Source: a virus (lineage: Duplodnaviria > Caudoviricetes). From it: a stretch of 64,000 nt of DNA. The notes beneath the pieces were generated by a model. It was not told the DNA's origin. It was given only the letters and a program-made list of their open reading frames with translations, and made no database searches. A program made the translations under genes and the position numbers. Location: IMG/VR virus record IMGVR_UViG_3300027740_000003, positions 371,005-435,004 of that record; one strand, written 5' to 3'. This document shows, in pieces, positions 27,199-62,148 of this stretch. Positions within the stretch are counted from its first letter, which is position 1; every line of letters begins with the position of its first letter.

Positions 27199-27498
27199 TT
27201 ATTCTATTATATCTTTTATCATTAACTCGTTTTTAGATAATACAAATATTTCTGCATCCTCAGAAAGTACCGCCAACATAATTTCTTCCGGAAAATCTTC
27301 GTTAAAAGCTATATATATTTTATAACTATTATTAAAGTTTTGAGAGATATGTTCTTTAATACAATCTCTAATTTCAACTTCAAGACAGAAACTTTTAAAT
27401 TTTGGCCAGTGAAGCCAACTCATTTTACCATTATTATAACTAATATAGAATCGTTCTCCAGATTTAATACATAAAGTTTTACACCCAACACATCCCAT
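27199..27498 (-). CDS. MIKDIIE-tail protein
   Basis: Ends VLSKNELMIKDIIE. Confidence 0.85.
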   Translation of the reverse strand: MGCVGCKTLCIKSGERFYISYNNGKMSWLHWPKFKSFCLEVEIRDCIKEHISQNFNNSYKIYIAFNEDFPEEIMLAVLSEDAEIFVLSKNELMIKDIIE

Positions 27499-27782
27499 TA
27501 TTCTATTATATCCTTAATTATCATCTCTTCTTTGGAAAGAATTTTAACACAATTTATATATTGTTCTTCAATAAAATAACCTAGAAATAAACAATCTTGA
27601 AAAAAACAAACTAATGAATAAAAATCTTCTTTTTTAGAATTAAAATCATTAAACCAATATCCGCATGTGGAAAAATCAACTTTGTTTACATCGTCTCCTG
27701 TTTTATACAGCTTTTTTATATTAGATAAGTATACTCCCTCTCCTTCTTTCAAAATAATAACTTTATGTCCTATACAAGGCAT
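27498..27782 (-). CDS. MIKDIIE-tail protein
   Basis: Ends ILSKEEMIIKDIIE. Confidence 0.85.
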   Translation of the reverse strand: MPCIGHKVIILKEGEGVYLSNIKKLYKTGDDVNKVDFSTCGYWFNDFNSKKEDFYSLVCFFQDCLFLGYFIEEQYINCVKILSKEEMIIKDIIE

Positions 27783-28150
27783 TATTCTATTATATCCTTA
27801 ATTATCATTTCATCTTCTGACAATATTTTATATCTTGTATCAGACCATTCTGATACAACAAACATTGAATATGCCCCATCTTCCCAATTTACAATAACCA
27901 TTTTAGGATCCAAACAATTCAATTTTGCAATTTCCTCAAATACACATAACATAGTTTCATAATACCAATTATACGAAACGCTATTAGTATATATTTTATT
28001 AGGATAAAATATATCGTTTTTCGTAATAGTTCCACCGACTTTGTTTTTAATATTTAAAAATTTACACATCCCCGACATTGATAAATCAAACATAATATCA
28101 TTATGATTAAGATCAAAAACAACCTCCCATTGAGATTCCTTCTTGGCCAT
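27782..28150 (-). CDS. MIKDIIE-tail protein
   Basis: Ends ILSEDEMIIKDIIE. Confidence 0.85.
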   Translation of the reverse strand: MAKKESQWEVVFDLNHNDIMFDLSMSGMCKFLNIKNKVGGTITKNDIFYPNKIYTNSVSYNWYYETMLCVFEEIAKLNCLDPKMVIVNWEDGAYSMFVVSEWSDTRYKILSEDEMIIKDIIE

Positions 28151-28428
28151 TATTCTATAATGTCCTTAATCATCATTTCATCTTCGGTAAGAATTACTAT
28201 TTTTTCCCAATCATATGCTATAATAAAATTGTAATAATTTTTCCACATAAAAGTATATATTATTGTAGGATCGGGCAAAGTTTGAAACCCTTTATATATA
28301 TCTTTATAATTCACATGTTGGTTATAACCAAGCCTTTTATTAAACAAACGTATATATTTTTTATTACCATGCACAATAAAACCTTCATCTCCATCATTCA
28401 TAATAACAGTTTTACAAGCAATAATCAT
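28150..28428 (-). CDS. MIKDIIE-tail protein
   Basis: Ends ILTEDEMMIKDIIE. Confidence 0.85.
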   Translation of the reverse strand: MIIACKTVIMNDGDEGFIVHGNKKYIRLFNKRLGYNQHVNYKDIYKGFQTLPDPTIIYTFMWKNYYNFIIAYDWEKIVILTEDEMMIKDIIE

Positions 28429-28708
28429 TCAATGATGTCCTTTATCATTATTTCGTCTTCAGTAAGAATTTGAATCATTTCTATTTGATTTGGTTTTAAA
28501 AAACCACAAGTATAACAGCCATCATCATAAAAAATTATATACGACATCACTTCTTCGTCTTTATTTAAACCCCATTAATCCATTGAGTATAGTGCTTAAA
28601 AACATCTTCTAAAAATGGGGATTTATTAAGCCATCCATTGCCTAAATAACCACTACAACGTGCTAGCTTTCCTCCTTTAACATAAAATGTTTTATGACCA
28701 ACCAACAT
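28425..28708 (-). pseudogene. frameshifted MIKDIIE-tail ORF (not in track)
   Basis: Close paralogue of 29460-29744 (MLVGHKTFYVKGGKLARCSGY...); one base missing in the A-run at 28567-28569; ends ILTEDEIMIKDIIE. Confidence 0.85.
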
Positions 28709-28716
28709 TATTCAAT
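28677..28716. repeat. 40-bp junction repeat, 3 identical copies (28677-28716, 29713-29752, 29988-30027)
   Basis: ttaacataaaatgttttatgaccaaccaacattattcaat spans the tail end and the next gene start. Confidence 0.9.
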
Positions 28717-29016
28717 GATGTCCTTTATCATTAAATCATCTTCGGTAAGAATTATATATTTTAAATATTTAGAGTGTACCACCAATAAATAAGAACCTTC
28801 TTCCCAAAACACATTTAAAAATATTAAACTCAGATTATATAACTCTCTACTATGAATCCAAATTTTATTTTCTCGGAAAAATTTTGAATCACCCTCTCTA
28901 ATTTCATGTGGATTTTTAACGATTGACGGTTCGTCTGAAGGAAGACTACGATCAATAAATAAACACTGATCGTCTTTTAAAACAATTGTTTTAAACTCAA
29001 AATCCATATTATTCAA
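28708..29016 (-). CDS. MIKDIIE-tail protein
   Basis: Ends ILTEDDLMIKDIIE. Confidence 0.85.
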   Translation of the reverse strand: MNNMDFEFKTIVLKDDQCLFIDRSLPSDEPSIVKNPHEIREGDSKFFRENKIWIHSRELYNLSLIFLNVFWEEGSYLLVVHSKYLKYIILTEDDLMIKDIIE

Positions 29017-29299
29017 TGATATCTTTAATTATCAAATCGTCTTCGGTAAGAATGTTTATTTTATCAAGTCGTTCTAAAGGAACAATTCCGGCACTGCAAA
29101 AACCATCATCATAGAAAATGAAATACAAAACCTCCGAACAATCTATATGGCGCTGTTCTATTATTTTATTTATAAACTGAAAAGTATCCGAAAAATCACT
29201 CTTCACAATGTCAAGATTTTCATCTGAAAAATAAGCCCGCTTTGCTCCTTTTACATATTCAAATGCTTTAACATTATAATTCACTTGTTTTTGTCCCAC
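29009..29299 (-). CDS. MIKDIIE-tail protein
   Basis: Ends ILTEDDLIIKDIIE. Confidence 0.85.
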   Translation of the reverse strand: MGQKQVNYNVKAFEYVKGAKRAYFSDENLDIVKSDFSDTFQFINKIIEQRHIDCSEVLYFIFYDDGFCSAGIVPLERLDKINILTEDDLIIKDIIE

Positions 29300-29463
29300 T
29301 CTCTCTTAACAATCTCTCTAATAAATTCTTTTGAAATATGAGAGTCCTCAATTGCCAAATTGCCATAAACAAATGATACGGCTTGCTCAAACCTTTCTTC
29401 ATCAGTCATTTTATAATCTTTAACTGATTCAAGCAATTCTTTAAGCTCTTTAGACATCGTCAT
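29281..29463 (-). CDS. small hypothetical protein without the tail
   Basis: MTDEERFEQAVSFVYGN; ATGA-coupled. Confidence 0.65.
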   Translation of the reverse strand: MTMSKELKELLESVKDYKMTDEERFEQAVSFVYGNLAIEDSHISKEFIREIVKREWDKNK

Positions 29464-29744
29464 TCTATTATATCCTTAATCATTAAGTCGTCTTCGGTAA
29501 GAATTTGCATCATTTTTATTTGATTTAGTGTTAAAAATCCATTAGTATAATAACCGTCATCATAAAAAATTATATACGACATCATTTCTTCATCTCCATT
29601 TAAAACCACTTCAATCCAATGATTATAGTGCTTAAAAACATCTTCTAAAAATGGGGATTTAATAAACCACCCATCACCAAAATAACCACTACAACGTGCT
29701 AATTTTCCTCCCTTAACATAAAATGTTTTATGACCAACCAACAT
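29460..29744 (-). CDS. MIKDIIE-tail protein
   Basis: Ends ILTEDDLMIKDIIE. Confidence 0.85.
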   Translation of the reverse strand: MLVGHKTFYVKGGKLARCSGYFGDGWFIKSPFLEDVFKHYNHWIEVVLNGDEEMMSYIIFYDDGYYTNGFLTLNQIKMMQILTEDDLMIKDIIE

Positions 29745-30019
29745 TATTCAATAATATCCTTTATCATTATTTCGTCTTCAGTGAGAATTTGTAATGAATC
29801 CAGCATTTCCTCAGAAAGAAAACCAGAACCCACTTTACCATCTTCAAAAAAAATTATATATGATATAAACTCTTCGGTTTGAGACAAAATATGCTTCATC
29901 CTATTTGCATAAAACTTCAATGTTTCTTGAGTATTTTCCTTAATAATTTTAAACTTAGCAGGCCCAACGTAAGCCTCTTTGCCATCTTTAACATAAAATG
30001 TTTTATGACCAACCAACAT
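29744..30019 (-). CDS. MIKDIIE-tail protein
   Basis: Ends ILTEDEIMIKDIIE. Confidence 0.85.
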   Translation of the reverse strand: MLVGHKTFYVKDGKEAYVGPAKFKIIKENTQETLKFYANRMKHILSQTEEFISYIIFFEDGKVGSGFLSEEMLDSLQILTEDEIMIKDIIE

Positions 30020-30297
30020 TATTCAATAATGTCCTTAATCATTAAATCATCATCAGTCAATACATAAATGTTAGTTTCTCTGTTAGAAAAATATCTATAA
30101 TCAACATTACCTTCGGGCCAGAAAATTGTTAAAAATAAAAAACAATAATTATCTTTTTTATTTAATGCTTTAATAGCATTATCACAACACCAATTCCTTT
30201 CCTCACTATTATTACGTAATTCCTTATTAAAATTAAATAGATGATCTCCTTCCTTTAAAACAATTACTTTATAGTTAAATTCATCTGGGGCTTCCAT
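30019..30297 (-). CDS. MIKDIIE-tail protein
   Basis: Ends VLTDDDLMIKDIIE. Confidence 0.85.
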   Translation of the reverse strand: MEAPDEFNYKVIVLKEGDHLFNFNKELRNNSEERNWCCDNAIKALNKKDNYCFLFLTIFWPEGNVDYRYFSNRETNIYVLTDDDLMIKDIIE

Positions 30298-46134: not shown

Positions 46135-46158
46135 TCAACTATATCCCTTTTATTTAAA

Positions 46159-46401
46159 TCATAAAATGATATCAACAATAGTTTTTTCCGCTTCAGATAA
46201 TTCAACTAATTGATATTTGTCTAAATATTTATAAGCTTGACACGGAATAAACCAATCAAAATGTCCATCGCCAACTAACAAATTTTCCAATTCAACAAAT
46301 GTAGAGCTTAAATTAATTTTCACCAACCCATGAGGGAAATTTTTAGAATTATCTTTTCTAAATTTATTATTAGAAATATAATATAAACCCGGTTTTATCA
46401 T
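46159..46401 (-). CDS. MIKDIIE-tail protein (variant)
   Basis: Ends ELSEAEKTIVDIIL. Confidence 0.8.
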   Translation of the reverse strand: MIKPGLYYISNNKFRKDNSKNFPHGLVKINLSSTFVELENLLVGDGHFDWFIPCQAYKYLDKYQLVELSEAEKTIVDIIL

Positions 46402-46646
46402 AGTATTAAATCTCTAATCATCATATCATCATCAGTTAGTTTTTGAAAACTTTTATCATTTAAACCCTTAATAAAATTTTCAAAACTACCAATAAGATTT
46501 ATATTATCTTGTATATCAAGAAAATTATAAATATTTTCATCTTTATCTTTATAATGGAAAGAAACTTTATAAATATGTCCTTCTTTTTGCCACCAATCTG
46601 CATTGGTAATTATGTTTGTTAAAAGATAGTACCCCTCTTCAATCAT
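46398..46646 (-). CDS. MIKDIIE-tail protein (variant)
   Basis: Ends KLTDDDMMIRDLIL. Confidence 0.8.
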   Translation of the reverse strand: MIEEGYYLLTNIITNADWWQKEGHIYKVSFHYKDKDENIYNFLDIQDNINLIGSFENFIKGLNDKSFQKLTDDDMMIRDLIL

Positions 46647-47832
46647 CTTTCTTCACCTTAATGAAAATCCCAAAAGGAGGTTCGCAAACTGGACTATTTG
46701 CTGTTGCTAAAAATATTGTCTGGGATCTCTTTGGTTTATTCGGCCATCTAACTAGCATCATGTCAGAATAAAGAATTATGAGATCCGGATGCATAGTCTC
46801 GGCAAGTTCAAAAGCTTTGCTCATATCAGACCCACCCCGGCCTTTAAACTTAATATCTCTATCCTTTAATGTCTTTTTTATTCGTTTAACCCTAATCACT
46901 TCCTGAACTACTACATCAGACGTAATTACTGTACATTTATCCACTAATGTTCCTAATTTCTCTAAATGTCCACAAACATATTCAAACTCTTCCCTCTGCA
47001 TCGAAGCTGATGTATCTACAATAAATACTAATTTGCCAATTTTACTAGTTTGTTCTGTAGGAACAATTATATCAAATGGAAGATATTTTGGATCTGGTTT
47101 ATATGGATTTCTATCCGTTGTTCCTTTAAGGATCTTTTTAGAAAACCTAAATAATATTCTTTCCCATGGTATTGTAGATTTTTTTAATGTATCTATATAT
47201 TCTTCATACCTACTTGGCAACCTGCCTTTCTTCATACTTTTTGTTCGGGCTGCCGCTTTAATAATAGCATCAATCAGCTGTTGGTTATCTACAGATGATG
47301 ATGGTTGTTCTAAATCATTTCCCCAAATATTATCATCTTGTTGCAATAAATTAACAGCGTCTTCTAATTTAATAACATCAGGAGTTTGCTTTTTAGATTG
47401 TCCAGGTTCTTTTTTATCTAATTCAGAAATAAGAAGTTTGTATATTTGTTCTACTGTTTTATTTGATAATGATTTGTCGTAATATATTCCTGGTGGAGGA
47501 GAATATTGTCCACGGAGATCTGATATAATAATATCATTTACAACATAATCCGAAGCAATTGTCCAGATTTTCTTTTTTCTTCCTTGCATTCGTTTTGGAT
47601 GTTGAAGGGCGACATGAAGCCATTCATGCATTGCTACAAACATCTTTTGTTTAAATGTAAGTTTGGTCCATTTATCCGGATTGCAGAAAAAAGTTGTTCC
47701 ATTTGTTCCTGCCCAAAAATTAAGGTCTTGGCGGAATTCAATTGGCATCATAAGAATTGGATAAGAAAATGGCGAAATTACTGCCAAAGATGACAATACT
47801 CTTCTAATGTCTTTTATTATTTCTTCATGCAT
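46639..47832 (-). CDS. DUF2201-type protein: HExxH metallopeptidase-like domain plus VWA domain
   Basis: HEWLHVALQH, WTIASDYVVN, MIDAS DTSASM, GRGGSD. Confidence 0.88.
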   Translation of the reverse strand: MHEEIIKDIRRVLSSLAVISPFSYPILMMPIEFRQDLNFWAGTNGTTFFCNPDKWTKLTFKQKMFVAMHEWLHVALQHPKRMQGRKKKIWTIASDYVVNDIIISDLRGQYSPPPGIYYDKSLSNKTVEQIYKLLISELDKKEPGQSKKQTPDVIKLEDAVNLLQQDDNIWGNDLEQPSSSVDNQQLIDAIIKAAARTKSMKKGRLPSRYEEYIDTLKKSTIPWERILFRFSKKILKGTTDRNPYKPDPKYLPFDIIVPTEQTSKIGKLVFIVDTSASMQREEFEYVCGHLEKLGTLVDKCTVITSDVVVQEVIRVKRIKKTLKDRDIKFKGRGGSDMSKAFELAETMHPDLIILYSDMMLVRWPNKPKRSQTIFLATANSPVCEPPFGIFIKVKKDD

Positions 47833-47833
47833 G

Positions 47834-48115
47834 TTATTCTATTATATCTTTTATTATAACTTCGTCTTTAGTTAGTTCTCTACATTTGTTTTTAACATAT
47901 AGTTCAAAATCTCTATAAAAAATTTTCCCCAAATTAATATTCTTTCTATTAATATAGAAAATAAATGACGGATTAGGACTATTAGCATTTTTAATATCAA
48001 AATACTCACCAACATCAAAACTCCAAATTTCTCCACTAAATAAAAGAATATCAATTTCCTCCAAAACAACATATGTTGTTTCTTTTATTAAACCTAAGGT
48101 GTGTATGTTCATCAT
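47834..48115 (-). CDS. MIKDIIE-tail protein
   Basis: Ends ELTKDEVIIKDIIE. Confidence 0.85.
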   Translation of the reverse strand: MMNIHTLGLIKETTYVVLEEIDILLFSGEIWSFDVGEYFDIKNANSPNPSFIFYINRKNINLGKIFYRDFELYVKNKCRELTKDEVIIKDIIE

Positions 48116-48411
48116 TGTATTATATCTTTTATTATAACTTCGTCTTCAGATATATGTTCAATATATTGTTGAAATTTTTTAAAAGATTGAGGTTCTGTTT
48201 TTAAACGGAACGTTAATCCAAAAGATTGAGGTTCTGTTTTTAAACGGAATGTTAATCCAAATGAATTATTTTTTACAATAAAATCAATCCAAATCGGTTC
48301 GTTTTCTAAATAAACAAATTTGGCTTCTAAAACTGTTCCGGCTTTAAATTGAAAATAATTATTTTTCAAAATGAAAAACCCAATAAACTCTTCTTTTCTA
48401 AAATGAATCAT
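48112..48411 (-). CDS. MIKDIIE-tail protein with internal 13-aa duplication
   Basis: SFGLTFRLKTEPQ twice; ends ISEDEVIIKDIIQ. Confidence 0.85.
   Translation of the reverse strand: MIHFRKEEFIGFFILKNNYFQFKAGTVLEAKFVYLENEPIWIDFIVKNNSFGLTFRLKTEPQSFGLTFRLKTEPQSFKKFQQYIEHISEDEVIIKDIIQ
48181..48261. repeat. 39-bp in-frame tandem duplication
   Basis: Two copies with one mismatch (48211 c, 48250 t). Confidence 0.9.
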
Positions 48412-48656
48412 TTGATAATATCCATTATCATCTTTTCATCCTCAGTTAATTTTTTAATATTTTCATTTATATCTTCAATAGAATTAATATAATATTCCTC
48501 ATTGCCTATTACTAACAATTGATTACTTCCATAGAACAATCCAAATTTAATAATAAATATTTCTCCCTGTTTAAAAACAATATTGCAATAATCATCATCG
48601 AAAATTAGTCTAATAACACAATTTTTCTCAACATAATATGTTCCATTTTCTATCAT
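48408..48656 (-). CDS. MIKDIIE-tail protein (variant)
   Basis: Ends KLTEDEKMIMDIIK. Confidence 0.85.
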   Translation of the reverse strand: MIENGTYYVEKNCVIRLIFDDDYCNIVFKQGEIFIIKFGLFYGSNQLLVIGNEEYYINSIEDINENIKKLTEDEKMIMDIIK

Positions 48657-48904
48657 CTGATAATATCCATTATAATAATTTCGTCATTTGTTAGCTCACG
48701 ACAGTTGTTCACTATTAGTTTTTCCAAAGCCTCTTTACCATCACTAATAAGTGTTGCTATGGTTAAATTATCAATGGACTTTATCTGATAATCCCCATCA
48801 TGTATTATTTTAAACGTTTCTCCTTTAACAAAGTCTCTATAATTATTGTCTAAATAATGTATACAAAAAGGTTCTAATACTGTATAGTACGTTTCAGTTA
48901 TCAT
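48653..48904 (-). CDS. MIKDIIE-tail protein (variant)
   Basis: Ends ELTNDEIIIMDIIR. Confidence 0.85.
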   Translation of the reverse strand: MITETYYTVLEPFCIHYLDNNYRDFVKGETFKIIHDGDYQIKSIDNLTIATLISDGKEALEKLIVNNCRELTNDEIIIMDIIR

Positions 48905-49146
48905 TCTATTATATCCTTAATAACCAACTCTTCTTCTGTAAGTTTTCTTAGATGATTTTTTATAATATATTCCTCGTTATTATCAAATAATTGTTTGGCA
49001 TCAATCTGTATATTGTTTTTATAACAAACCAACTCAAAAGCATCAAAACACTCATAATATCTTAAAACATATAATTCTCCAATTTCGTACTGTAAACCGC
49101 AATAATTAAATCTACTTTCTACAGTATATAAACCTTTCTCAATCAT
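48901..49146 (-). CDS. MIKDIIE-tail protein
   Basis: Ends KLTEEELVIKDIIE. Confidence 0.85.
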   Translation of the reverse strand: MIEKGLYTVESRFNYCGLQYEIGELYVLRYYECFDAFELVCYKNNIQIDAKQLFDNNEEYIIKNHLRKLTEEELVIKDIIE

Positions 49147-49427
49147 AAAATGATATCCGCAATCATAACTTCGTCTTCAGATATTGGGTCAAGAAACGAT
49201 TCAAAATTATCTAAATCTGGCCCTGAAACATATACTAGATTCAATGCATGACTAAGCTCTTTTCTTTTGCATAAAATTATAACAAATTCAACAAATCTAT
49301 TTCCAATCATAGGAATTATTGGCTGAGGATTATAATCCGTATAATCCGTAATTACTGCTTTAAATATTGTTCCGCAAGGAAAATTATAAAAATCCTTTTT
49401 AAGGATATAATAACCTTCTTTAATCAT
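49143..49427 (-). CDS. MIKDIIE-tail protein (variant)
   Basis: Ends PISEDEVMIADIIL. Confidence 0.85.
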   Translation of the reverse strand: MIKEGYYILKKDFYNFPCGTIFKAVITDYTDYNPQPIIPMIGNRFVEFVIILCKRKELSHALNLVYVSGPDLDNFESFLDPISEDEVMIADIIL

Positions 49428-49675
49428 TCTATTATATCCTTTATCATTATTTCGTTTTTGGTTAATCCTCTACATTTTGGTAATATATTCTCTGCAAAAA
49501 TCCGTTTATTTACAACTGTAATATTTTTATTTCCAACCAAATGTATTGCAACATAATTAACACCATATTCGGCTTTAAAACAAACATTATTATCAATAAT
49601 AGTATCGTTTCCAAACTCAATTCCAAACTCAATTTTAATTTTAATATTTTGTAAAGCAACAAAATGTTTAATCAT
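49424..49675 (-). CDS. MIKDIIE-tail protein
   Basis: Ends GLTKNEIMIKDIIE. Confidence 0.85.
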   Translation of the reverse strand: MIKHFVALQNIKIKIEFGIEFGNDTIIDNNVCFKAEYGVNYVAIHLVGNKNITVVNKRIFAENILPKCRGLTKNEIMIKDIIE

Positions 49676-49920
49676 TCTATTATGTCTTTTATCATTAGTT
49701 CGTCATCAGTTAGTTTCGTACTGTTTTTTATAATTTCTTTTATATCTGATTTATAGATATAAATTATCTGGCCTTTAATAATTATATAATTGTGTTCAAA
49801 TTGTTTATGAAACAAATCGCCATCATAATAATCTATAAAAATAGAGTTTCCTTTTTTAATAATACAACATCCTAAACTTTCAAACTCTTCATTAACAACA
49901 TACCAGCCAGACTCTATCAT
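49672..49920 (-). CDS. MIKDIIE-tail protein
   Basis: Ends KLTDDELMIKDIIE. Confidence 0.85.
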   Translation of the reverse strand: MIESGWYVVNEEFESLGCCIIKKGNSIFIDYYDGDLFHKQFEHNYIIIKGQIIYIYKSDIKEIIKNSTKLTDDELMIKDIIE

Positions 49921-51230
49921 CCTGCCGCCACAAATTGCATCAATTCATCAATCTCTTGCTCTGCCAATCCCGAGTCCATTATTATATTTATCAACCGAGT
50001 TGCATGAATCTGTCTCAAATAAATCATCCTAACCTCAGGAACCAAATCACCAATAAATCTAACAATGTTCTTTACATACTTGCTATTAAACTTTGCCTTA
50101 TGCCTGTTCTCTTCACAAGCCTTCTCCACAACAAACATATCACTGTCAATCCGGTCAGACATTGCAAATGCAGCAATACATTGTTCACTAATTAACTTCT
50201 CCCCAGACATACTGTCCTTTGTCGGTATCCTTTCCTCTCCCTCTAAAATCTTCATAACATCATATTTAAGATACAATTCCCGATACATAAAAAATTCTGT
50301 CTGAGCTTGCTTCCCAACAAAATCCTGTAGTTCATTCCTAACAATGTTATTAAAATATTCTACTTGCTCCGTATTATTTTTGTCTATCTTAAGTCTCTTC
50401 TCCAATTTATCAATCACTCGGGAAGCCATAACCCAACTTCTCGGGGTTGGATAAGCATAAGTCTGCTCTAGATCATATTTAACTAACCACTCTCCATTGT
50501 TAAATTTGTGGAATAAGATAATGTCTTTTCTAACATCATGATCAACAGCCCATTTGATCCATGTATCTAGATCTGGTTCAACCTCTAAATGAGCACATCG
50601 GTTCCGCAGTTCTGGAGGAACTGGGTTGGATAAAATACTATCTTCCTCGCGATTTGCCGCGGCTATCACATACCATCCATCTCCTAAAGCAAAATCGCCA
50701 ATTACTCTATTTTCCAAAAGATGCGTTGCTGCCCCGAATTTAGTGTCTGAACATTTGTCTAATTCATCAAGCAGACAAACTCCGAATTTTTCTTTTTTAC
50801 ATCTCTCTAAATTTTCAGGCATAACAAACCGTGCATAATTTTCAGATAAAGAAGGGACTACGACTCCTTGAAGTTGCTCAATAGGTCTTTCGGCTAAACG
50901 TAGAATAAGACAATGAGGAGCAATCATATCAAGAAATTCTTTACCAACATAAGAAAAATTCAGAACCTTCTTTTTATGTTCTAAATTTCTCTTAGCTTCT
51001 TTATATTCTTCTAAAGATTCATAGTCTTTATTTTTCTTTTTTAGTTGAGAAATAAGTTCAGAAAACTCTTTTTCTGCTTCATAAACCATTCTCTCTGAAA
51101 TAATTTGATAAACCAATTCCGTTTTACCGATTCCAGGACTTCCCCACAAAATTACAGGATAATTATCTGTAGGATCATTCCAATCCCATTTAGAAAGAAT
51201 TCTTTCTTTTGCTTGTGCAATGTTAACCAT
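49917..51230 (-). CDS. MoxR-type AAA+ ATPase
   Basis: WGSPGIGKT, LLDELDK, IAAANR, PPELRNRC; charged helical insert after Walker A. Confidence 0.9.
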   Translation of the reverse strand: MVNIAQAKERILSKWDWNDPTDNYPVILWGSPGIGKTELVYQIISERMVYEAEKEFSELISQLKKKNKDYESLEEYKEAKRNLEHKKKVLNFSYVGKEFLDMIAPHCLILRLAERPIEQLQGVVVPSLSENYARFVMPENLERCKKEKFGVCLLDELDKCSDTKFGAATHLLENRVIGDFALGDGWYVIAAANREEDSILSNPVPPELRNRCAHLEVEPDLDTWIKWAVDHDVRKDIILFHKFNNGEWLVKYDLEQTYAYPTPRSWVMASRVIDKLEKRLKIDKNNTEQVEYFNNIVRNELQDFVGKQAQTEFFMYRELYLKYDVMKILEGEERIPTKDSMSGEKLISEQCIAAFAMSDRIDSDMFVVEKACEENRHKAKFNSKYVKNIVRFIGDLVPEVRMIYLRQIHATRLINIIMDSGLAEQEIDELMQFVAAG

Positions 51231-51240: not shown

Positions 51241-51657
51241 TTATTCTATTATATCTTTTATTACTGCCTCTTCAGCCGTGATTAATTCAAGTTCTTTAAA
51301 TTTAAGATTCATTGAATTTTTCAATGAATCCAATGAATTATATGAGTTCATATAACTCGCAGGATATAACAGTTTATCATTATAGAAAATTATAAATGAA
51401 AAAGTTTCGTCAGCTTTATTCATTTCGCTAATTTTATTTACAACACGTATAATTATACTAGAGCTATGATTAAATTTAACAAAATATTTCTTACCAAAAT
51501 TATAACTATATATTTTATGTCTATCAGATAAATTAGAACAATAATGATTGCAACACTCTCCTGGCTTATAACCAAATTCCGAGATTACAGAATTATATAT
51601 AAATTCAATGTCATATTTTAAATCTATACAATGTTTTATAAAATCATTACTATTCAT
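51241..51657 (-). CDS. MIKDIIE-tail protein
   Basis: Ends LITAEEAVIKDIIE. Confidence 0.85.
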   Translation of the reverse strand: MNSNDFIKHCIDLKYDIEFIYNSVISEFGYKPGECCNHYCSNLSDRHKIYSYNFGKKYFVKFNHSSSIIIRVVNKISEMNKADETFSFIIFYNDKLLYPASYMNSYNSLDSLKNSMNLKFKELELITAEEAVIKDIIE

Positions 51658-52004
51658 TCAATAATATCCTTAATAATACTCTCATCTTTGGTTAATAAAC
51701 CAACTTCTTTAAATGCATTAATCAATGCTTTTCTTAACTCTAAAGGAGTGGTTAGATTTCTTTCCACATAATAGCTATTGCCCATAAAACGATCATAAAA
51801 CATAACCGTACACCCTCCATAATAACTAAATCTAATACAATAAATAATATTATCTTTAGAAGATTTAACAAATCCATTATCTTTGTTGCCACACACAAGA
51901 TTTAATATTACTTCGTCTGAAATCATTCGTAATTTACCAAAATCATATCCATAATCAACAAGAATTGATTTTAAAACATCTAATATTTGTTTTTTGGTAA
52001 TCAT
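51654..52004 (-). CDS. MIKDIIE-tail protein
   Basis: Ends LLTKDESIIKDIIE. Confidence 0.85.
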   Translation of the reverse strand: MITKKQILDVLKSILVDYGYDFGKLRMISDEVILNLVCGNKDNGFVKSSKDNIIYCIRFSYYGGCTVMFYDRFMGNSYYVERNLTTPLELRKALINAFKEVGLLTKDESIIKDIIE

Positions 52005-52354
52005 TCAATGATATCTTTTACCATAACTTCATCTATAGTCAATATGTTAAGCTTCTTTATATCGAAATATTTTTCAAACATTTCTACAAAATTTTCTAAT
52101 CCACCAGCATATTCCTTTTCTCCCAACCATCCAAAATTTTTTATCAAACTTCTTAATGTTAGACGGCCTTTTTCTTTCTTAATTGTAATTTTATTTATTT
52201 AATATGGGGCGGTTTTGAAAAGAAAATATATTCCTATATCCAAATCGTCAATAGTTATTATGTTCTTTAAAGAATTTATAGAAACGTTATGTGAATATTT
52301 TAACAAATAATCAAATATATTCTTATATTTTAAATTTTTGTGGCTAATTTTCAT
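52001..52354 (-). pseudogene. MIKDIIE-tail ORF with tandem in-frame TAA TAA at 52196-52201 (not in track)
   Basis: ATG 52354 and TGA 52001 are in frame (118 codons) and both ends are ATGA-coupled; ends ILTIDEVMVKDIIE. Confidence 0.8.
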
Positions 52355-52737
52355 TCTATTATATCCTTAATTATCATCATATTTTTATAATTTTCCTCAA
52401 CTTTATCTAATTTAGATAGATCTTTTTCTAAATAAGATAACATATGTTTATGATGATTAATTTTATCAATAATCAAACGTTTCATATGCTCTTTAGCATT
52501 AAATAATGCCTCTTCTGGAAAAACAAATCTTCTATCTAATAGACAATTTGATTTTTCATCAATCATAACTGTCCACATATCATCAAGATCATGGTAAATC
52601 AAATCAACACCCAAATATTCTGAATGATAAATATAACTCCATTCACTATGTTTAGTATCAATATCTTTGATACTAAAATAAATTCCTAAAACAGTAATTT
52701 CTTTTTCAATAGAAGGATTTTGAACCGCTTTTTTCAT
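52351..52737 (-). CDS. MIKDIIE-tail protein, coiled-coil type
   Basis: Ends YKNMMIIKDIIE. Confidence 0.85.
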   Translation of the reverse strand: MKKAVQNPSIEKEITVLGIYFSIKDIDTKHSEWSYIYHSEYLGVDLIYHDLDDMWTVMIDEKSNCLLDRRFVFPEEALFNAKEHMKRLIIDKINHHKHMLSYLEKDLSKLDKVEENYKNMMIIKDIIE

Positions 52738-53141
52738 TCAATAATATCCTTAATAGACATTTGCTCTTTACACTCTTTAAATATCTCTTCCAATGTAGTC
52801 ATATATTGACTATATAAATGGAATCTTTCATTTGCTTCTTTTACTTTATTTTTGCAAGCGGAAACTTCATATTTAGCATCTTCTAATTTAGAATTCATTC
52901 TTTTTTTAAAATCGCCAAGAACTCTATTTAAAGCCTCAACATCTGTTTTGCCGCCAGGAAAAACATCTCCACGAAAAATAAAACTATACTTACTATTTTC
53001 AAATTTTTCATCAATATACATTTCTATAAAAGGCAATTCTGTACATTCATATTTCATATTAAATTTGCCATCACACAGATTAAGGGTTTTAAGTGTAAAC
53101 TTTTTTCCACAAATAACAATTTCTTTCTCTATGTAATTCAT
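52734..53141 (-). CDS. MIKDIIE-tail protein, coiled-coil type
   Basis: Ends KEQMSIKDIIE. Confidence 0.85.
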   Translation of the reverse strand: MNYIEKEIVICGKKFTLKTLNLCDGKFNMKYECTELPFIEMYIDEKFENSKYSFIFRGDVFPGGKTDVEALNRVLGDFKKRMNSKLEDAKYEVSACKNKVKEANERFHLYSQYMTTLEEIFKECKEQMSIKDIIE

Positions 53142-54355: not shown

Positions 54356-54737
54356 TTTCTATTGTTTCCTTATCTGAAACTATATCTAATACACCAATTA
54401 TTCTTTTAATATTTACAAATTTAGTTTCGTCTATTTTTCCAATAAAAATAGTATAATCTGCTACTTTTATTCCAACAACCGAAAGTTCTTTAAGTTCTTT
54501 AATAATATCCGGAATCTGATCATTTGAAGCAGATTTAATTACATAACCAGAGCCTACAGACTTTAGTAGTGATGATAGATCTGAGATCTCCTCTGTGGGG
54601 ACAACATCACCATTTTCTCTACGTCTGTCAAGTTCTTGCATTGCTTTAATTGCCAGGTCTTTGTTTATTTTGAAAGCCCTATATGTGGCAATTATTGAAA
54701 CCAAAGAATCTATCGTAAATGTTTCTAGTTCTATCAT
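54321..54737 (-). CDS. hypothetical protein
   Basis: Start refined to ATG 54737 (ATGA overlap with the tail ORF stop). Confidence 0.65.
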   Translation of the reverse strand: MIELETFTIDSLVSIIATYRAFKINKDLAIKAMQELDRRRENGDVVPTEEISDLSSLLKSVGSGYVIKSASNDQIPDIIKELKELSVVGIKVADYTIFIGKIDETKFVNIKRIIGVLDIVSDKETIENASNSKIPPLW

Positions 54738-55150
54738 TCTATTATATCTTTTATCATTGCTTCGTCTGGAGTTAATAGTTTTAACTCTATGAATTCTTTT
54801 TCTAAAGCTGAAATTATATTTATATAAGAATTTGTATAACACCAATGAAGTACAATAGGATGATCTGGATACGATATACAATATATAAATCCAGTTCGAT
54901 GATAACGAAAACAATTTATTTTAACATAATTTATTTTATGAAGATTTTTCAATCCAAAAAAGAAATCGCATCTAATTATATAAGAAAAATAAAAATATTC
55001 ATTATGAATTTGTATTTTACTTTTGCTAGTATTATATCCGAATTTTTTCAACAAATTAATTATATCCACAGTTATTTTGTTTTCAAAATAAAAAATGTGT
55101 CGGCGGAACTTTTCTTTTAATTCTTTTTTCTTCTTCCTACTCAATTTCAT
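54734..55150 (-). CDS. MIKDIIE-tail protein
   Basis: Ends LLTPDEAMIKDIIE. Confidence 0.85.
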   Translation of the reverse strand: MKLSRKKKKELKEKFRRHIFYFENKITVDIINLLKKFGYNTSKSKIQIHNEYFYFSYIIRCDFFFGLKNLHKINYVKINCFRYHRTGFIYCISYPDHPIVLHWCYTNSYINIISALEKEFIELKLLTPDEAMIKDIIE

Positions 55151-55503
55151 TCTATTATGTCCTTAATAAGCGTTTCGTCTTTTGTTAGAACCTTGCTGTC
55201 TCTAAATGTTTTTACCAATATATTTTTGATATCACTGAAGTTAGTGAAAATATATTTTTTACCATAATCCAAAGAAGATTCAATATAAAATATTTTTCTG
55301 GATAAAATTACAATATACCATTTATTACATTCTAAATAATTACAACCATTACTAAAAAGCTGTTGAGTATTACAAAGATGAATATAACTCTCATGATTAG
55401 TATTAAAATCATGATTCAATTTAACAGCATCAAACTCATAATTGTTTTTAATAAACTCAATTATTTGATTATATAAACTAAAATATGTTTTATCATCATT
55501 CAT
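55147..55503 (-). CDS. MIKDIIE-tail protein
   Basis: Ends VLTKDETLIKDIIE. Confidence 0.85.
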   Translation of the reverse strand: MNDDKTYFSLYNQIIEFIKNNYEFDAVKLNHDFNTNHESYIHLCNTQQLFSNGCNYLECNKWYIVILSRKIFYIESSLDYGKKYIFTNFSDIKNILVKTFRDSKVLTKDETLIKDIIE

Positions 55504-55793
55504 TATTCAATTATATCCTTAATCATAGCCTCTGTTTTGTTCAACAAACCTATATTTTTAATTTCTTTTCTCAAAAATGATTTTATATCTTTCATTGAAT
55601 TATAATTACATTTTTTAAAATTAAATTCAATCTTATGTAAATTTTGATAAACGAAAATTCTTTGAATAATTTCTCTTTTAATATTGTAAAAGCCAAATGT
55701 TATTATATTTCTATGAACAATACAACTAATATTAAAACCATACTCTTTGTTAAAGAAATATATTATTTCGTTTATTAATTTTTGTTTATTCAT
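55503..55793 (-). CDS. MIKDIIE-tail protein
   Basis: Ends LLNKTEAMIKDIIE. Confidence 0.85.
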   Translation of the reverse strand: MNKQKLINEIIYFFNKEYGFNISCIVHRNIITFGFYNIKREIIQRIFVYQNLHKIEFNFKKCNYNSMKDIKSFLRKEIKNIGLLNKTEAMIKDIIE

Positions 55794-56480: not shown

Positions 56481-57254
56481 TCAGTATCCTAAATTTAATA
56501 TTGGTTTAAATGCTGGGCCATCAATAACAATTTTATCACCAAGTCCATCATTTGAAATAATTTGTCCAGTCAACCTGCCAGTATCATAGATTCCACTATC
56601 TAGGTTGCAAGAGTGAGTATAATACTTTGCCTGGCCATCTTCCTGAGCAGCATGTCCAGAAACAATATATCCAAACCGCCCATCATAAACTTCATGCCAT
56701 GATGTTCCACCTTCTTTGGACTTAACTAGAGTTTTTACTCCATTAATCATTTGCCAGACTAGTGGGATCATTTTTCCATTTTCATCTACGTCTCGGACAT
56801 AAACAACCTCGACATCTTTGCCGAGACTGTTCTGATCCATCAGCGGACTAACACCAGCATGTAGAACAGTTATTTTCATGTTTGGAAATTCAAATGTAAT
56901 AACTAATGGTCTTCCCCTCCACCATTTTAAACATTTAGATAAAGGATTTTTCTTTTTCGATCTAATTATTTTTACTTCATGATTACCACGGACAGCATAA
57001 GCAATATGTTTATCAGATAATCTAATAAGTTCTTCTGTTATTATTTCAGCAGATTTTTCACCATAACCTTTATCATAAACATCTCCTACTGAGACAATTA
57101 ATTTCGTAGGAGAAGGTTTCCATTCTTCCAAAAGATTAAAAAATTGTTCTGTATGTTCATGTATATCGCCAATAATACATATAGAAGTATTTTCTGGAAC
57201 CTGAATTGTTTGAAATGCAGGCAATTTAGAAGCATCTTTATATGTATTGCTCAT
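56481..57254 (-). CDS. calcineurin-like metallophosphoesterase
   Basis: GDIHEH, GDVYDKG, GNHE, VLHAG, VSGH, LDSG. Confidence 0.9.
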   Translation of the reverse strand: MSNTYKDASKLPAFQTIQVPENTSICIIGDIHEHTEQFFNLLEEWKPSPTKLIVSVGDVYDKGYGEKSAEIITEELIRLSDKHIAYAVRGNHEVKIIRSKKKNPLSKCLKWWRGRPLVITFEFPNMKITVLHAGVSPLMDQNSLGKDVEVVYVRDVDENGKMIPLVWQMINGVKTLVKSKEGGTSWHEVYDGRFGYIVSGHAAQEDGQAKYYTHSCNLDSGIYDTGRLTGQIISNDGLGDKIVIDGPAFKPILNLGY

Positions 57255-57742
57255 TCTATGATGTCCTTTATCATTGCACAGTCATAATAATAGTTTAAAT
57301 TGTTTTTAATTTTATTTAAATCTTCTAATCTTTTCTGTTTTTCATTATAAAATTCTATTAGTTTTTTATTATTTTTCAAATTTTCATTTTGTTTTAATTT
57401 CTTTTCAATTTTATCAACAAAACATTGCGAATTATCTTTCCAAAGTGAAATTAAATACAAAAACAAATCTTTTGACATACATTTTATAGCAGAAAGATTT
57501 GGTTTATCTGGGTCATTATTTTGAAAAATAGTATCCATATAAATTATGGATGAAAAATCTTTGTTTAAATGGTTTTCGCCATCATAACTCATAAAATTTT
57601 CTAAAGATCCTAAAATGCCACCATTAAAATGTTTTAACAAATTTTGTATATCTGGCAATAAATGTAGTTTGTCATCATCGATTCCAATAAGATCGTTAGA
57701 ATCTAAACTATACTCTGTTATTCTAGTTAACCAAATGATCAT
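57251..57742 (-). CDS. MIKDIIE-tail protein
   Basis: Ends YYDCAMIKDIIE; paralogue of 57739-58206. Confidence 0.85.
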   Translation of the reverse strand: MIIWLTRITEYSLDSNDLIGIDDDKLHLLPDIQNLLKHFNGGILGSLENFMSYDGENHLNKDFSSIIYMDTIFQNNDPDKPNLSAIKCMSKDLFLYLISLWKDNSQCFVDKIEKKLKQNENLKNNKKLIEFYNEKQKRLEDLNKIKNNLNYYYDCAMIKDIIE

Positions 57743-58206
57743 TCTATGATTCCTTTTATCATTAATTCGTCGTAATATTTGTCTACATTGTTTTCAATTT
57801 TGTTTAAATCTTCTAAGAATTTTTTATAATAGGTATAACATACCAAAAAAATATCATCTTCCTCATCTTTTTTATTTATTTTATATAAATAAAGTTCTTT
57901 CCACAATGAAATCATATATATAAACAGTCTTTTAGACATATATTGTAATAACTCATATCTTGGCTCAGAAATATCTGACTTATCAAATATGTCTTCATAA
58001 TGAATTACATATACCAAATTTACAAATTGATTGCTTCCATCATAACTAGTGAATTTTTCTATAAGACCAAGAATTTCTCCGCCATGAACTTCTTTACAAT
58101 CTCCCGTATTTTCTAAATAATAATTTAAATCTGATAATAAATCAATTTTATCATCGTCAAATTTAACCAAATAATATTCAATTTCTTTTCTTAAATAGAC
58201 AATCAT
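57739..58206 (-). CDS. MIKDIIE-tail protein
   Basis: Ends YYDELMIKGIIE. Confidence 0.85.
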   Translation of the reverse strand: MIVYLRKEIEYYLVKFDDDKIDLLSDLNYYLENTGDCKEVHGGEILGLIEKFTSYDGSNQFVNLVYVIHYEDIFDKSDISEPRYELLQYMSKRLFIYMISLWKELYLYKINKKDEEDDIFLVCYTYYKKFLEDLNKIENNVDKYYDELMIKGIIE

Positions 58207-58613
58207 TCGATTATATTCCTTATCATTATTTCGTCATATACAAGGTTTATTTTGTTTTCAGACAAATATTTACTAATTATTTTTAATTTACAACTATCAT
58301 TTTTAAATTTAATTTTCCACTGTTTTACCAAATAATTAATCAATTTTTTCGGGAGCCAATAAAAATGATAATCTGTTTCAAATGCCGAAGGATCAAACAA
58401 ATCTTCAATTTTTTTATAGAACTTATTCTTTCTCAATGATTTTATTTTAAATTCATTATTTGGAATAATAGCATAAATTGTATTATAATACGATTTGATA
58501 AATTCAAAATTTTCTATTTCGTCTGGAATCTCTAAAAATCTTGGAACAAACCATTCATAATTATGTTCAATATGCTCCGTTGATATGTTATTTTCTTTGT
58601 AAATTACAATCAT
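58203..58613 (-). CDS. MIKDIIE-tail protein
   Basis: Ends VYDEIMIRNIIE. Confidence 0.85.
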   Translation of the reverse strand: MIVIYKENNISTEHIEHNYEWFVPRFLEIPDEIENFEFIKSYYNTIYAIIPNNEFKIKSLRKNKFYKKIEDLFDPSAFETDYHFYWLPKKLINYLVKQWKIKFKNDSCKLKIISKYLSENKINLVYDEIMIRNIIE

Positions 58614-58798
58614 TCGATTATGTCTTTTATTAATAAATTACTCATTATCTCTTCTTCAAATTCTTTATAATTAGGACAATACATTATAACGTTTAAATTA
58701 TATTTGCTTAATTTAATTGCTTCTAGTTGAACTTTCAATGTTGGGTTCCTAATATATTTTATTATTGGAGGGTGTTTTCTAACAATACGCAATTGCAA
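58610..58798 (-). CDS. MIKDIIE-tail protein, probably 5'-truncated
   Basis: No ATG; NPSEELQ and NPTLKVQ repeats as in 20253-20723; ends SNLLIKDIIE. Confidence 0.65.
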   Translation of the reverse strand: MQLRIVRKHPPIIKYIRNPTLKVQLEAIKLSKYNLNVIMYCPNYKEFEEEIMSNLLIKDIIE

Positions 58799-58824
58799 TT
58801 CTTCTGATGGGTTTAAACCAACCT

Positions 58825-58853: not shown

Positions 58854-58947
58854 GGAGAAATAATTTTAAAAAATCCTCTTCGTCATTTGGATTATATCCC
58901 AAATGTTTCACTATCTTTTGTTCCAAGGAATTATTTGCCATATATAC

Positions 58948-59669: not shown

Positions 59670-60069
59670 TTTTATTTCTTTCTTTGTCTGCCAATTCTTC
59701 TAGCCATTCATTGTATTTTGCCAAATCTTTTTCATACTTGTGTTGTTTAATGTTATATTTTTTAATGGAATTAATATATAATTCTCTCTCCGATTTATAA
59801 TTTTCATCTTTTAATTTATGAACAATTCTAGCAGAAGGATATTCTCCACCATTCTCATCAGCTTTTAATATTGGCTCAATAAAAATATTTGAAGCTAAAT
59901 TTTCTTCTATTTCATTAATATCATTGTTTGATGTATATTTTGCTCGAATTTCATTTAATAATTCTTTTAACGAAAGAGGACAAGGGATTTCTGTATATAT
60001 TTCTATTTCAAAAAATTCTTTAGGACAAACCATTAGTTCAGATTTTTCTGGCGGAATTGGCTTTTTCAT
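59662..60069 (-). CDS. hypothetical protein
   Basis: 135 aa. Confidence 0.6.
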   Translation of the reverse strand: MKKPIPPEKSELMVCPKEFFEIEIYTEIPCPLSLKELLNEIRAKYTSNNDINEIEENLASNIFIEPILKADENGGEYPSARIVHKLKDENYKSERELYINSIKKYNIKQHKYEKDLAKYNEWLEELADKERNKND

Positions 60070-60434
60070 TCAATGATGTCCTTTATAGATTTTTCTGTTG
60101 CCGTCAATTTATTGTTTTGATACATTTCTTTTATATCATTTATTTTTAATAAAATAAAATCTCCAGAAATACCAGGAAGCTCATCCCAATAATTTTGACT
60201 ATTTTCGCTATAAACAAGCCAATCGTTGGATTTAATAAACTGCGGATTGTTAATTTTTAAAAAATTTGAACTAAAATTTACAAATTCCCCAGATATTGTA
60301 ATGTCATCCAAAACAGCAGTAATCATTTTCCCAATAAGCGGTACGAATAATTTTTCATTGCTAACTTTTCCTAAAGAAATAGCCAGAGAAAAGCCTTCCC
60401 CAGCATCATTCTGTGATGGTTTGTTATTTCCCAT
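60066..60434 (-). CDS. MIKDIIE-tail protein with Sm-like core
   Basis: LIGKMITAVLDD...GEFVNF; ends LTATEKSIKDIIE. Confidence 0.8.
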   Translation of the reverse strand: MGNNKPSQNDAGEGFSLAISLGKVSNEKLFVPLIGKMITAVLDDITISGEFVNFSSNFLKINNPQFIKSNDWLVYSENSQNYWDELPGISGDFILLKINDIKEMYQNNKLTATEKSIKDIIE

Positions 60435-60438
60435 TCTA

Positions 60439-60861
60439 TTATTTGGTCCAATACGTAGTAAATCCTCTTGTCCCTTCAGTCCGGAGCCCCTTTTCTCCTT
60501 TTGAAGCCGTCCATTCTTTGCTCATTACATGAAGTAATGTGCTCAGAACCTTAGGATTAATATCATGTTTCGCATTAGCAAGGAATTCTCGAATCTCCCT
60601 CACCGTCATTCCTGGCTTGGCAAATACAGCTGCTGTAATCGCCTCTCTGTGGCCTTTTGACCCAGGCACTGGACCTACACCCTTCTTGGCCTGGCGAGGC
60701 TTTGTAGAGGCAGCCAGGGCCTGAGAATTGCTATTAAGCTGTTCTAGGGCTTTTTTAATTTCTGCTGTCTGGGCTTCAGAAGAAGCTAACGCAGCCGTAA
60801 GTTTATAAATAGCCAAATTGCGAATATCAGGATCATTAAAAATAGAAATTAGGTCAACCAT
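60439..60861 (-). CDS. putative winged-helix DNA-binding protein
   Basis: PGMTVREIREFL...KVLSTLLHVM; start refined to ATG 60861. Confidence 0.6.
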   Translation of the reverse strand: MVDLISIFNDPDIRNLAIYKLTAALASSEAQTAEIKKALEQLNSNSQALAASTKPRQAKKGVGPVPGSKGHREAITAAVFAKPGMTVREIREFLANAKHDINPKVLSTLLHVMSKEWTASKGEKGLRTEGTRGFTTYWTK

Positions 60862-60887
60862 TGTTATTCCTCTCAAGATCGAGAGAC

Positions 60888-60916
60888 AGCATATGCATTT
60901 CTAGTAGGCTTGTCAA
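60888..60916 (-). promoter_or_regulatory. sigma70-type promoter
   Basis: TTGACA-N17-TATGCT; the -35 TGA is the upstream stop. Confidence 0.75.
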
Positions 60917-61347
60917 GCCCGGTGCTTGGTAGCAGAGATTTGTAGTTCTTCCTCGCCAACATCTGCTATAAATATTAGAAACACAAGTTCTTGTGAACAG
61001 TCTAATGTTAAATCAGCTTGTATTTTGCCAACAAAAAATTTTCTAGGAGATCTATTTTCTTCTCCAATATCTTCGAATCTTTCTTCTAATTCTACAGCTA
61101 TATTATTATGTCTCGAATATGTTTTCTTTTTATTATTAGAATAATATTTAAATATATTTGTAAATTCTGGACAAGTTAAAGGAGCAATGTGAAGTTGTTT
61201 TAATTCTCCTTCAAGGAAAACCAGGAAAGCTTGTCCTTTAGCAAAGTTTAAAGTTCCATTGAACTGTAGTTTTCCTATGTAATATGTTTGCCCATCTCTA
61301 TCTTCTTTGGGAAGTAATCCTATTTTTATTGGATGCATATAGTTCAC
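60913..61347 (-). CDS. hypothetical protein with internal duplication
   Basis: YYIGKLQFNGTLNFAKGQAFLVF vs FFVGKIQADLTLDCSQELVFLIF. Confidence 0.7.
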   Translation of the reverse strand: MNYMHPIKIGLLPKEDRDGQTYYIGKLQFNGTLNFAKGQAFLVFLEGELKQLHIAPLTCPEFTNIFKYYSNNKKKTYSRHNNIAVELEERFEDIGEENRSPRKFFVGKIQADLTLDCSQELVFLIFIADVGEEELQISATKHRA

Positions 61348-61598
61348 TCTATTATGTCTTTTATCATTGCTTCGTCTTCAGTTATACATGTCTCAACACT
61401 TTCAATTATATTAAACAATGCATTTAATATATCTAAATCAACATGATCAAGCTGACTCAACTTATCTAAATTGTCGTAATCAACATTTTTACTGTCAATT
61501 AGTTCTTGAATTAATTCTGATAATTTTTTCTTGCAATTAATACATACGGGTTCCATTTTACCAATATTAACAGGCATTTTATGATTAATTCTTTTCAT
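61344..61598 (-). CDS. MIKDIIE-tail protein, Zn-type
   Basis: NHKM...CINC...CITEDEAMIKDIIE. Confidence 0.85.
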   Translation of the reverse strand: MKRINHKMPVNIGKMEPVCINCKKKLSELIQELIDSKNVDYDNLDKLSQLDHVDLDILNALFNIIESVETCITEDEAMIKDIIE

Positions 61599-61861
61599 TC
61601 AATTAAGTCTTTTATCATCAATTCGTCTTCGGACAAACATCCTTTATGATGGTTCTCCACGTAATTAATTTGGACATTAACTGATGAATCAGAAGAAATG
61701 GTTTTCAATATAGGATCACTTGCCCATTGATTCCATATCCTCATATCAGTTGAATCAACAAGCTCAATGTATAGTTGATCTAAACTTTTCCCGCAGTTTA
61801 TGCATTTGTAATTAACGAATGTTTCATATGTCTTTTGAATATTATGTTTCACCCAATTCAT
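61595..61861 (-). CDS. MIKDIIE-tail protein, Zn-type
   Basis: KHNI...CINC...CLSEDELMIKDLIE. Confidence 0.85.
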   Translation of the reverse strand: MNWVKHNIQKTYETFVNYKCINCGKSLDQLYIELVDSTDMRIWNQWASDPILKTISSDSSVNVQINYVENHHKGCLSEDELMIKDLIE

Positions 61862-62148
61862 TGTATAATATCCTTGATAATTATCTCATCACAAGTAAGG
61901 TTTTTGTTAGTTGCGGAATCAGGAATTATTCCCTCACCATAATCTGTTGCTTTAATTTTGCAATTTTTGCATTTATAATAAATTGTTCTGGGTTCGTGAT
62001 GAACTTCGGCGGTAGAATCACTACGTCGAATAAAGAATTTTCTGCCACCAGATACTTTTACTGGCTCCCAATCATGTCCATAACTGTCCTTTCCCGATTG
62101 ATTTGGATAATTTTTAAGATAATCTTTCCAGGTTTGTGGCTGCTTCAC
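61858..62148 (-). CDS. MIKDIIE-tail protein, Zn-type
   Basis: GHDW...CKNC...TCDEIIIKDIIQ. Confidence 0.85.
   Translation of the reverse strand: MKQPQTWKDYLKNYPNQSGKDSYGHDWEPVKVSGGRKFFIRRSDSTAEVHHEPRTIYYKCKNCKIKATDYGEGIIPDSATNKNLTCDEIIIKDIIQ

Follow-up and report, generated by a model that had tools for sequence, protein, structure and literature searches.

A recurrent C-terminal peptide on small proteins of a huge phage is probably a protein-level module whose codons also bear an ordinary Shine-Dalgarno effect

Codon and stop-codon use at the ends of genes is reportedly adapted to the following gene's Shine-Dalgarno (SD) sequence, as Eyre-Walker is said to have described in 1996 in J Mol Evol. 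Where two genes overlap, most prokaryotes have an SD sequence for the downstream gene inside the upstream one; in some pairs this sequence is essential, and in others it contributes nothing (PMC6728339; Huber et al. 2019). Overlapping pairs of this kind, with an intragenic SD and with termination-reinitiation at ATGA or at TGATG/TAATG (PMC6728339; reviewed in PMC12548453), are the closest described counterpart of the junctions considered here, which show the same co-directional -4/-1 overlaps. These junctions lie in a window of 64,000 nucleotides, the final 64 kb (positions 371,005 to 435,004) of the virus record IMGVR_UViG_3300027740_000003 (435,004 bp, 35% GC; G000 in the following), and they follow small genes whose products end in a common peptide, the tail, with the consensus L-S/T-x-D-E-h-h-I-K-D-I-I-E-stop; genes that carry it are referred to as tagged. 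As in the published pairs, the SD of the downstream gene sits inside the 3' end of the upstream one and its contribution varies by gene, 57% of the coupled tails (those with a coupled downstream gene) having AAGGA and the others having none. Unlike in the published pairs, the upstream 3' end encodes a near-invariant peptide on more than 100 genes, and the SD comes down to a single wobble choice between AAG and AAA at a fixed distance; the coupling, for its part, is predicted here from the sequence. Gene ends, stop codons and short spacers that are adapted to a downstream SD (PMC2784483) recur here too, in that the codons at upstream ends are shaped in the same way in tagged and untagged genes, with no difference of principle. 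Taken together, the tail is probably a protein-level module first, and the dual coding of its DNA a real but ordinary and weak intragenic-SD effect.

A raw six-frame scan for endings of the form ...I[K/R]D II E-stop yields 47 real tails in the window, all on the minus strand, as are almost all window genes; about 40 of them fall in 27199-62148, with further ones at 7282-8377 and 19706-20253. In the whole of G000 the raw scan yields about 130 tails, on both strands. The gene set used for this genome comes from our own caller based on open reading frames (ORFs) and comprises 677 genes at 91% coding density, 110-111 of them tagged; overall, the tag is carried by about 110-130 small proteins. The bodies of these proteins fall into 75 groups that are mutually unrelated by BLAST, and comparison of 10 tagged proteins with Pfam and PHROGs gave nothing meaningful. 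The tail pattern matches 99 times in G000, 38 times in a second tag-bearing phage (G001; 458,729 bp, 39.5% GC, found via a degenerate tail pattern and taken whole as L085-L107) and 0 times in 10 complete related huge phages; reversed-pattern controls give 0 matches, 80 loci around RlaP orthologues (41-68% identity) contain no tags, and a 5.5 kb megablast against phage records returned no match. G001 has about 106 tagged genes, for example at 2-48 kb and 386-389 kb, and its repertoire is more varied (IKDII 20, IREII 18, IKEII 11, IKNII 5, IMGII 4, and others), which provides a natural series for finding which tail positions matter. A third carrier is G002, a complete small phage (a contig of 36,869 bp that has direct terminal repeats and shares its sample with the G000-like contigs): it has two proteins ending in MIKDIIE (L081:879-1220 and L082:6395-6763) and shares a 684-bp stretch of 74% identity with positions 197319-197997 of G000.

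The codons of the tail vary at synonymous sites along its whole length: the Leu at -13 is TTA, CTT, TTG or CTA, the Ile residues are ATA, ATT or ATC, the Asp residues GAT or GAC, and the Ser/Thr codons vary too. The amino acids do not follow this variation. In 20 orthologous tagged pairs between G000 and a relative from a different metagenome sample (contigs L108-L143, 75-85% nucleotide identity), the bodies are only 46-79% identical and the tails almost unchanged, and the full peptide is also retained by some 30 tagged genes that have no coupled gene behind them. Synonymous sites are thus free where the peptide is kept, so that it is chiefly the protein tag on which selection acts; a C-terminal protein tag is defined by just this, a single terminal peptide that selection on its amino acids maintains on proteins otherwise unrelated. 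For one tagged family, an AlphaFold model (mean pLDDT 74.5) predicts a small β body followed by a terminal helix (residues 72-81); the tail would then be a short C-terminal helix maintained by amino-acid-level selection, and it presumably docks to a partner. In placing one short C-terminal peptide on many unrelated small proteins, the tail resembles the ssrA tag, the XB motif of SspB and the PRANC of poxviruses, to which it is likened by concept.

Within this peptide, the codon at -5 is used in a distinctive manner. Where the tail reads K-D, the Lys codon is AAG in 23 of 37 copies in the whole window, which matches exactly the hand count of the sequence-only reading that had drawn attention to it, and in 19 of 30 copies within 27199-62148. 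The impression that AAA dominates elsewhere also proved correct: in G000, AAG accounts for 25% of non-tail Lys codons and for 19% of Lys codons before Asp, and the tails (48/92, 52%) differ sharply from the Lys-Asp pairs elsewhere (122/628; Fisher p = 2e-10). When one gene is sampled per body family, AAG is still found in 52% of 67 families (median p = 2e-9), and both AAA and AAG are present in 6 of the 10 multi-member body families; with codons mixed inside families, the excess of AAG is not a matter of paralogue inheritance. Arg in the same position is AGG in 5 of 8 tails, against a background of 22%, and both shifts are replicated in G001, where tail Lys is AAG in 29/56 (25% background) and tail Arg is AGG or CGG in 20/39 (26% background). 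The shift goes with coupling: for the two phages pooled, AAG occurs in 62 of 109 coupled tails (57%) and in 16 of 45 uncoupled ones (36%; p = 0.02). The choice between AAG and AAA is unlinked to the tag status, start codon or length of the next gene, and ATT and AAG, a combination that would lengthen the SD to TAAGGA, show no significant association (p = 0.11). These codon counts support selection on the wobble base at -5 for the downstream SD as the probable source of the excess. In the 20 orthologue pairs, AAA and AAG have been swapped in both directions (4 and 2 cases), and the Lys site does not exceed the synonymous sites next to it in codon identity; such selection is thus weak.

The tight junctions between tails and the genes behind them also held on recounting. 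In 27199-62148, the tail stop overlaps the next start in 31 of 38 tagged genes, 23 times by 4 nt (ATGA) and 8 times by 1 nt (TAATG); genome-wide, an overlap of 4 or 1 nt follows 73 of 110 tagged genes. The overlapped starts at 45087, 54737, 57254 and 61347 belong to untagged genes and are, as proposed, in frame with listed ORFs, the last of them being a GTG formed from GAG TGA. AAGGA ends 9 nt upstream of the ATG at ATGA junctions and 12 nt upstream at TAATG junctions, in agreement with the spacing first read from the letters. That GGA survives when the amino acids change is true in part: AGG GAC, AGG GAT, ATG GAT (twice), GCG GAT, AAA GGA and AGG AAT were all recovered, but AGA GAT and GTT GAT, which have no GGA, occur as well. 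In G001, the M-G and R-G tails are encoded by ATG GGN, CGG GGA and AGG GGG. Other codons of the 3' end also track coupling: of 80 coupled tags, 63 stop with TGA, and of 30 uncoupled ones, 21 stop with TAA; the terminal Glu is GAA in 94% of tails, its use following coupling. Whether or not they are tagged, coupled genes of both G000 and G001 shift their Ile codons away from ATT (55% in the background) towards ATA (46-60%) within the last three codons, which would accord with a preferred A-rich spacer separating SD and start.

Untagged genes show the same codon effect. When an untagged gene is coupled, the Lys codons it has at positions -3 to -6 include 53 AAG among 96 (55%), against 66 of 214 (31%) at positions -9 to -20 and 53 of 171 in uncoupled genes (p ~1e-4); tagged coupled genes (40/71) and untagged coupled genes (53/96) are indistinguishable (p = 1.0). 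The dual coding is thus the ordinary intragenic-SD effect of overlapping gene pairs and is not specific to the tag, and because untagged coupled genes shift identically, it does not explain why the tag exists. What stands of the dual-coding interpretation is that the tail codons carry the SD core of the next gene together with the stop/start overlap; what falls is that this distinguishes the tag. The claim reduces to a textbook effect, which tempers the idea of the tag as a nucleic-acid device.

The strength of the SD in the tail is limited in a characteristic way. Pairing energies computed against the 16S tail ACCUCCUUA give -5.4 kcal/mol for AAG tails and -1.25 for AAA tails, with a mean of -2.2 for random coding 18-mers, and so bear out the expectation that AAG provides anti-SD pairing. 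When all synonymous encodings of MIKDIIE are enumerated, the best reaches -5.9 kcal/mol and every AAA encoding -0.9: the tail SD is capped by the peptide sequence. Untagged coupled junctions have a mean of -4.6 kcal/mol and 30% of them are at -6 or lower, a value reached by none of the tag junctions; among coupled tails, 31 of 80 (~40%) use AAA and are hence essentially without an SD (ΔG about -1). In position, GGA begins at -12 in tails with ATGA and at -15 in those with TAATG; elsewhere in the genome GGA peaks at -12 to -8 before starts, a range that takes in the -12 position.

A simple mechanism would link these observations. In dense co-directional arrays, in which the start overlaps the stop, the next ribosome-binding region must fall within the last six codons of the tail, where nearly all bases are fixed by the peptide; an SD can then arise only via the wobble base at -5 (Lys AAA to AAG, Arg AGA/CGN to AGG/CGG), a change that yields (A)AGGA at -12 to -15. 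Selection for downstream initiation or re-initiation probably lifts AAG from ~19-25% to ~55% in this way, and the same selection probably favours TGA stops, GAA as the last codon and ATA for Ile (an A-rich spacer). Judged from codon use, the AAGGA is probably used by ribosomes. The phage offers an unusually clean read-out of gene-end adaptation to a downstream SD. The SDs at about 190 junctions in two phages are set apart, in essence, by a single wobble base whose distance is fixed, a clean natural experiment that could serve to measure the contribution of the SD to re-initiation.

Several observations weigh against a protein-level module accompanied by a merely generic SD effect. Uncoupled tails still have 33-39% AAG, above background, an excess that could come from ancestry or from missed small downstream ORFs, and the gene calls rest on a simple, unvalidated caller. 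TAATG junctions, where GGA is at -15 and outside the usual window, are no poorer in AAG than ATGA junctions, which is unpredicted by a strict spacing model. The overlap of tails with unrelated untagged genes behind them reaches 58%, against 29% between untagged genes (from tag to tag it is 82%, even with unrelated bodies, and from untagged to tagged genes 44%), and genes ending in A overlap the next start in 78% of cases when tagged and in 48% when untagged (p = 7e-11). Part of the tightness arises because the last codon of the tail ends in A; something beyond the generic effect nevertheless ties tails to tight junctions, and this excess is unexplained. The main interest lies in the peptide tag, its reader and the tightness of its junctions.

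The uniformity of the junctions would be explained if the tail or junction were also a recombination hotspot, at which microhomology or short homology drives the in-register gain, loss and shuffling of genes. This is unlikely, although the arrays do differ from those of the relative by whole genes. The segment between the AAA+ and VWA genes has eight tagged genes in G000 and six genes, one of them untagged, in contig L123 of the relative; only two are clear orthologues, and all differences between the two segments consist of whole genes bounded at junctions. In syntenic stretches, moreover, a counterpart is undetected for 21 of 59 tagged genes and for 10 of 59 untagged ones (p = 0.035), and the frequent overlap from tag to tag irrespective of the bodies would be expected from exchange in register. 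Whole-gene turnover, however, is no better explained by exchange through tails than by selection that keeps genes intact. Nor did the tails show the shared homology of 30-45 bp that the sequence-only reading had attributed to them: identity between tails is 64% across 42 nt and 77% across the final 24 nt, and their median longest exact match of 8 nt (90th percentile 13) equals that of a control with column-shuffled codons, in which only the peptide is preserved. Conservation of the junction DNA beyond the need of the peptide, by which mobile or integron-like cassettes are recognised, was not found. Array indels relative to the related phage are bounded at gene junctions; synonymous sites are near saturation, and at ~0.64, orthologous tail codon identity is hardly above the ~0.5 expected for random tails, which leaves no power for mapping breakpoints within tails.

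Also in favour of exchange at junctions is a perfect 40-bp block that occurs three times behind three different upstream genes (28700-28770, 29736-29805 and 30011-30080, minus strand). It runs from the three final codons of a tail through TAATG into the gene behind, of which it covers the first 11 codons (MLVGHKTFYVK); outside it, divergence has brought copy 1 to ~50% relative to copies 2 and 3. The block suggests gene conversion or strong nucleotide-level selection on the initiation region, but only ~9 nt of it belong to the tail.

A two-layer module is rather improbable. Here the exposed residues at -5/-4 (K-D, R-D, R-E, K-E, M-G, R-G) would be kept partly for their GGA-capable codons, and the tail with its junction would be a site of in-register exchange. 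If this were true, initiation pressure would shape the amino acids of a protein tag, and in-register exchange would build and reshuffle the arrays and explain the 78% versus 48% overlap of genes ending in A.

It is very unlikely that the AAG excess has a source other than the SD, be it paralogous ancestry of the tails, a codon-pair or context bias, or the avoidance of A-runs. Many tails do reside in tandem paralogues, and some of the excess is present in uncoupled tails too; it nevertheless survives when each body family is reduced to a single gene, and both codons are found in most families with several members. Lys before GA-codons elsewhere is even lower in AAG (18-19%), ATA-AAA is common elsewhere, Arg codons move to NGG in parallel, and the shift is tied to coupling, with its equal in untagged genes that are coupled.

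Extremely improbable is that the tail exists mainly as the portable coupling cassette proposed in the sequence-only reading (an SD plus a stop/start overlap, by which any ORF could be added to an operon), a nucleic-acid device with the conserved peptide as a by-product: overlaps follow tails much more often than they follow comparable untagged genes, and variant tails, including the M-G and R-G tails of G001, often keep GGA, but synonymous sites are free while 13 residues, most of them irrelevant to an SD, are kept, about 30 tails keep them with no coupled gene downstream, 31 of 80 coupled tails, those with AAA, lack an SD, the SDs at tail junctions are weaker on average than those at untagged junctions, and untagged genes show the identical wobble shift.

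For a protein tag that docks to a partner, a reader may be sought among the neighbouring genes. The order RNA ligase, tags, MoxR-like AAA+, tags, DUF2201/VWA is common to G000 and G001, with protein identities of 54%, 60% and 44%; the genes in this conserved order are at 46639-47832, 49917-51230 and 53138-54355 of the window and at 143.9-153.6 kb of G001. Jumbo phages are known to have a MoxR AAA+ protein with a metallopeptidase-vWA partner (PMC7824862; Iyer et al. 2021), and the pair of AAA+ (49917-51230) and DUF2201/VWA (46639-47832) is likewise found here, inside the tag arrays; the likeness to these pairs and to tail-reading MoxR/vWA machines is one of gene presence and position. A search of viral contigs for relatives of the AAA+ and DUF2201 loci found none. 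The DUF2201/VWA protein, a possible reader by position, gains no support from its phyletic distribution, being present in 7 of 10 tagless related huge phages and absent from the tagged 36.9-kb phage G002; tags in a phage that has no DUF2201 hint that the reader may be host-encoded or supplied in trans. A screen for G000 proteins that are present in G001 and absent from three tagless relatives gave 92 candidates without discrimination, and it was dropped because the tagless relatives are far more distant (22-124 shared proteins, against 255 for G001).

The proteins recognised in the window are ClpP, an FtsK-like protein, an RNA ligase, NADAR, the MoxR-like AAA+ ATPase and the DUF2201 metallopeptidase/VWA protein; the features described in the following are all on the minus strand. 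The first large array (27199..30297) comprises ten small tagged genes, one untagged gene of 60 aa and one frameshifted copy, joined mostly by TAATG or ATGA. It contains an example of a TAATG junction, in which the Lys-Asp codons of gene 29744-30019 provide AAGGA at 29757..29761 (GGA at -15), 12 nt ahead of the ATG (29744-29742) of gene 29460-29744. The broken tagged gene 28425-28708 is the frameshifted copy, and belongs to the MLVGHK family. Six tagged genes follow at 45084..46646; the final gene of this array (45084-45581, with Arg-Asp encoded as AGG GAC) forms an ATGA overlap with the start of the untagged gene 44587-45087.

The untagged gene for the DUF2201 metallopeptidase-like/VWA protein (46639..47832) is flanked by tag arrays, and eight tagged genes (47834..49920) stand between it and the gene for the MoxR-like AAA+ ATPase (49917..51230), itself untagged and within the arrays. 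The junctions of these eight genes are ATGA, the last excepted, as exemplified by the AAGGA at 49437..49441 in the tail of gene 49424-49675, which lies 9 nt ahead of the ATG (49427-49425) of gene 49143-49427 and has a predicted anti-SD pairing energy of ~-5.4 kcal/mol. In the relative, an untagged gene of 119 aa (L123:4273-4632) is found inside a tagged array, ATGA-coupled to the preceding tail, at a place where G000 has different tagged genes. Five tagged genes occupy 51241..53141, one of which (52001-52354) is broken here and intact in L123: the ORFs 52199-52354 and 52001-52147 match one intact gene of 117 aa in the relative (L123:530-883).

Beyond these, three tagged genes are found at 54734..55793, where the tail of 54734-55150 has its ATGA overlap with the in-frame ATG at 54737 of the untagged ORF 54321-54914. 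Four more (57251..58798) include the variant tails Arg-Asn (AGG AAT) and Lys-Gly (AAA GGA), and the tail at 57251 overlaps the start of an untagged phosphoesterase gene (56481-57254). A lone tagged gene at 60066..60434 is ATGA-coupled to the untagged gene 59662-60069. Among the three tagged genes at 61344..62148, the tail at 61344 is the one ending in GAG TGA, its GTG being the overlapped start of the untagged gene 60913-61347. Outside this region, five more tagged genes with the same tail and junction types are located at 7282..8610, and three more at 19706..20723.

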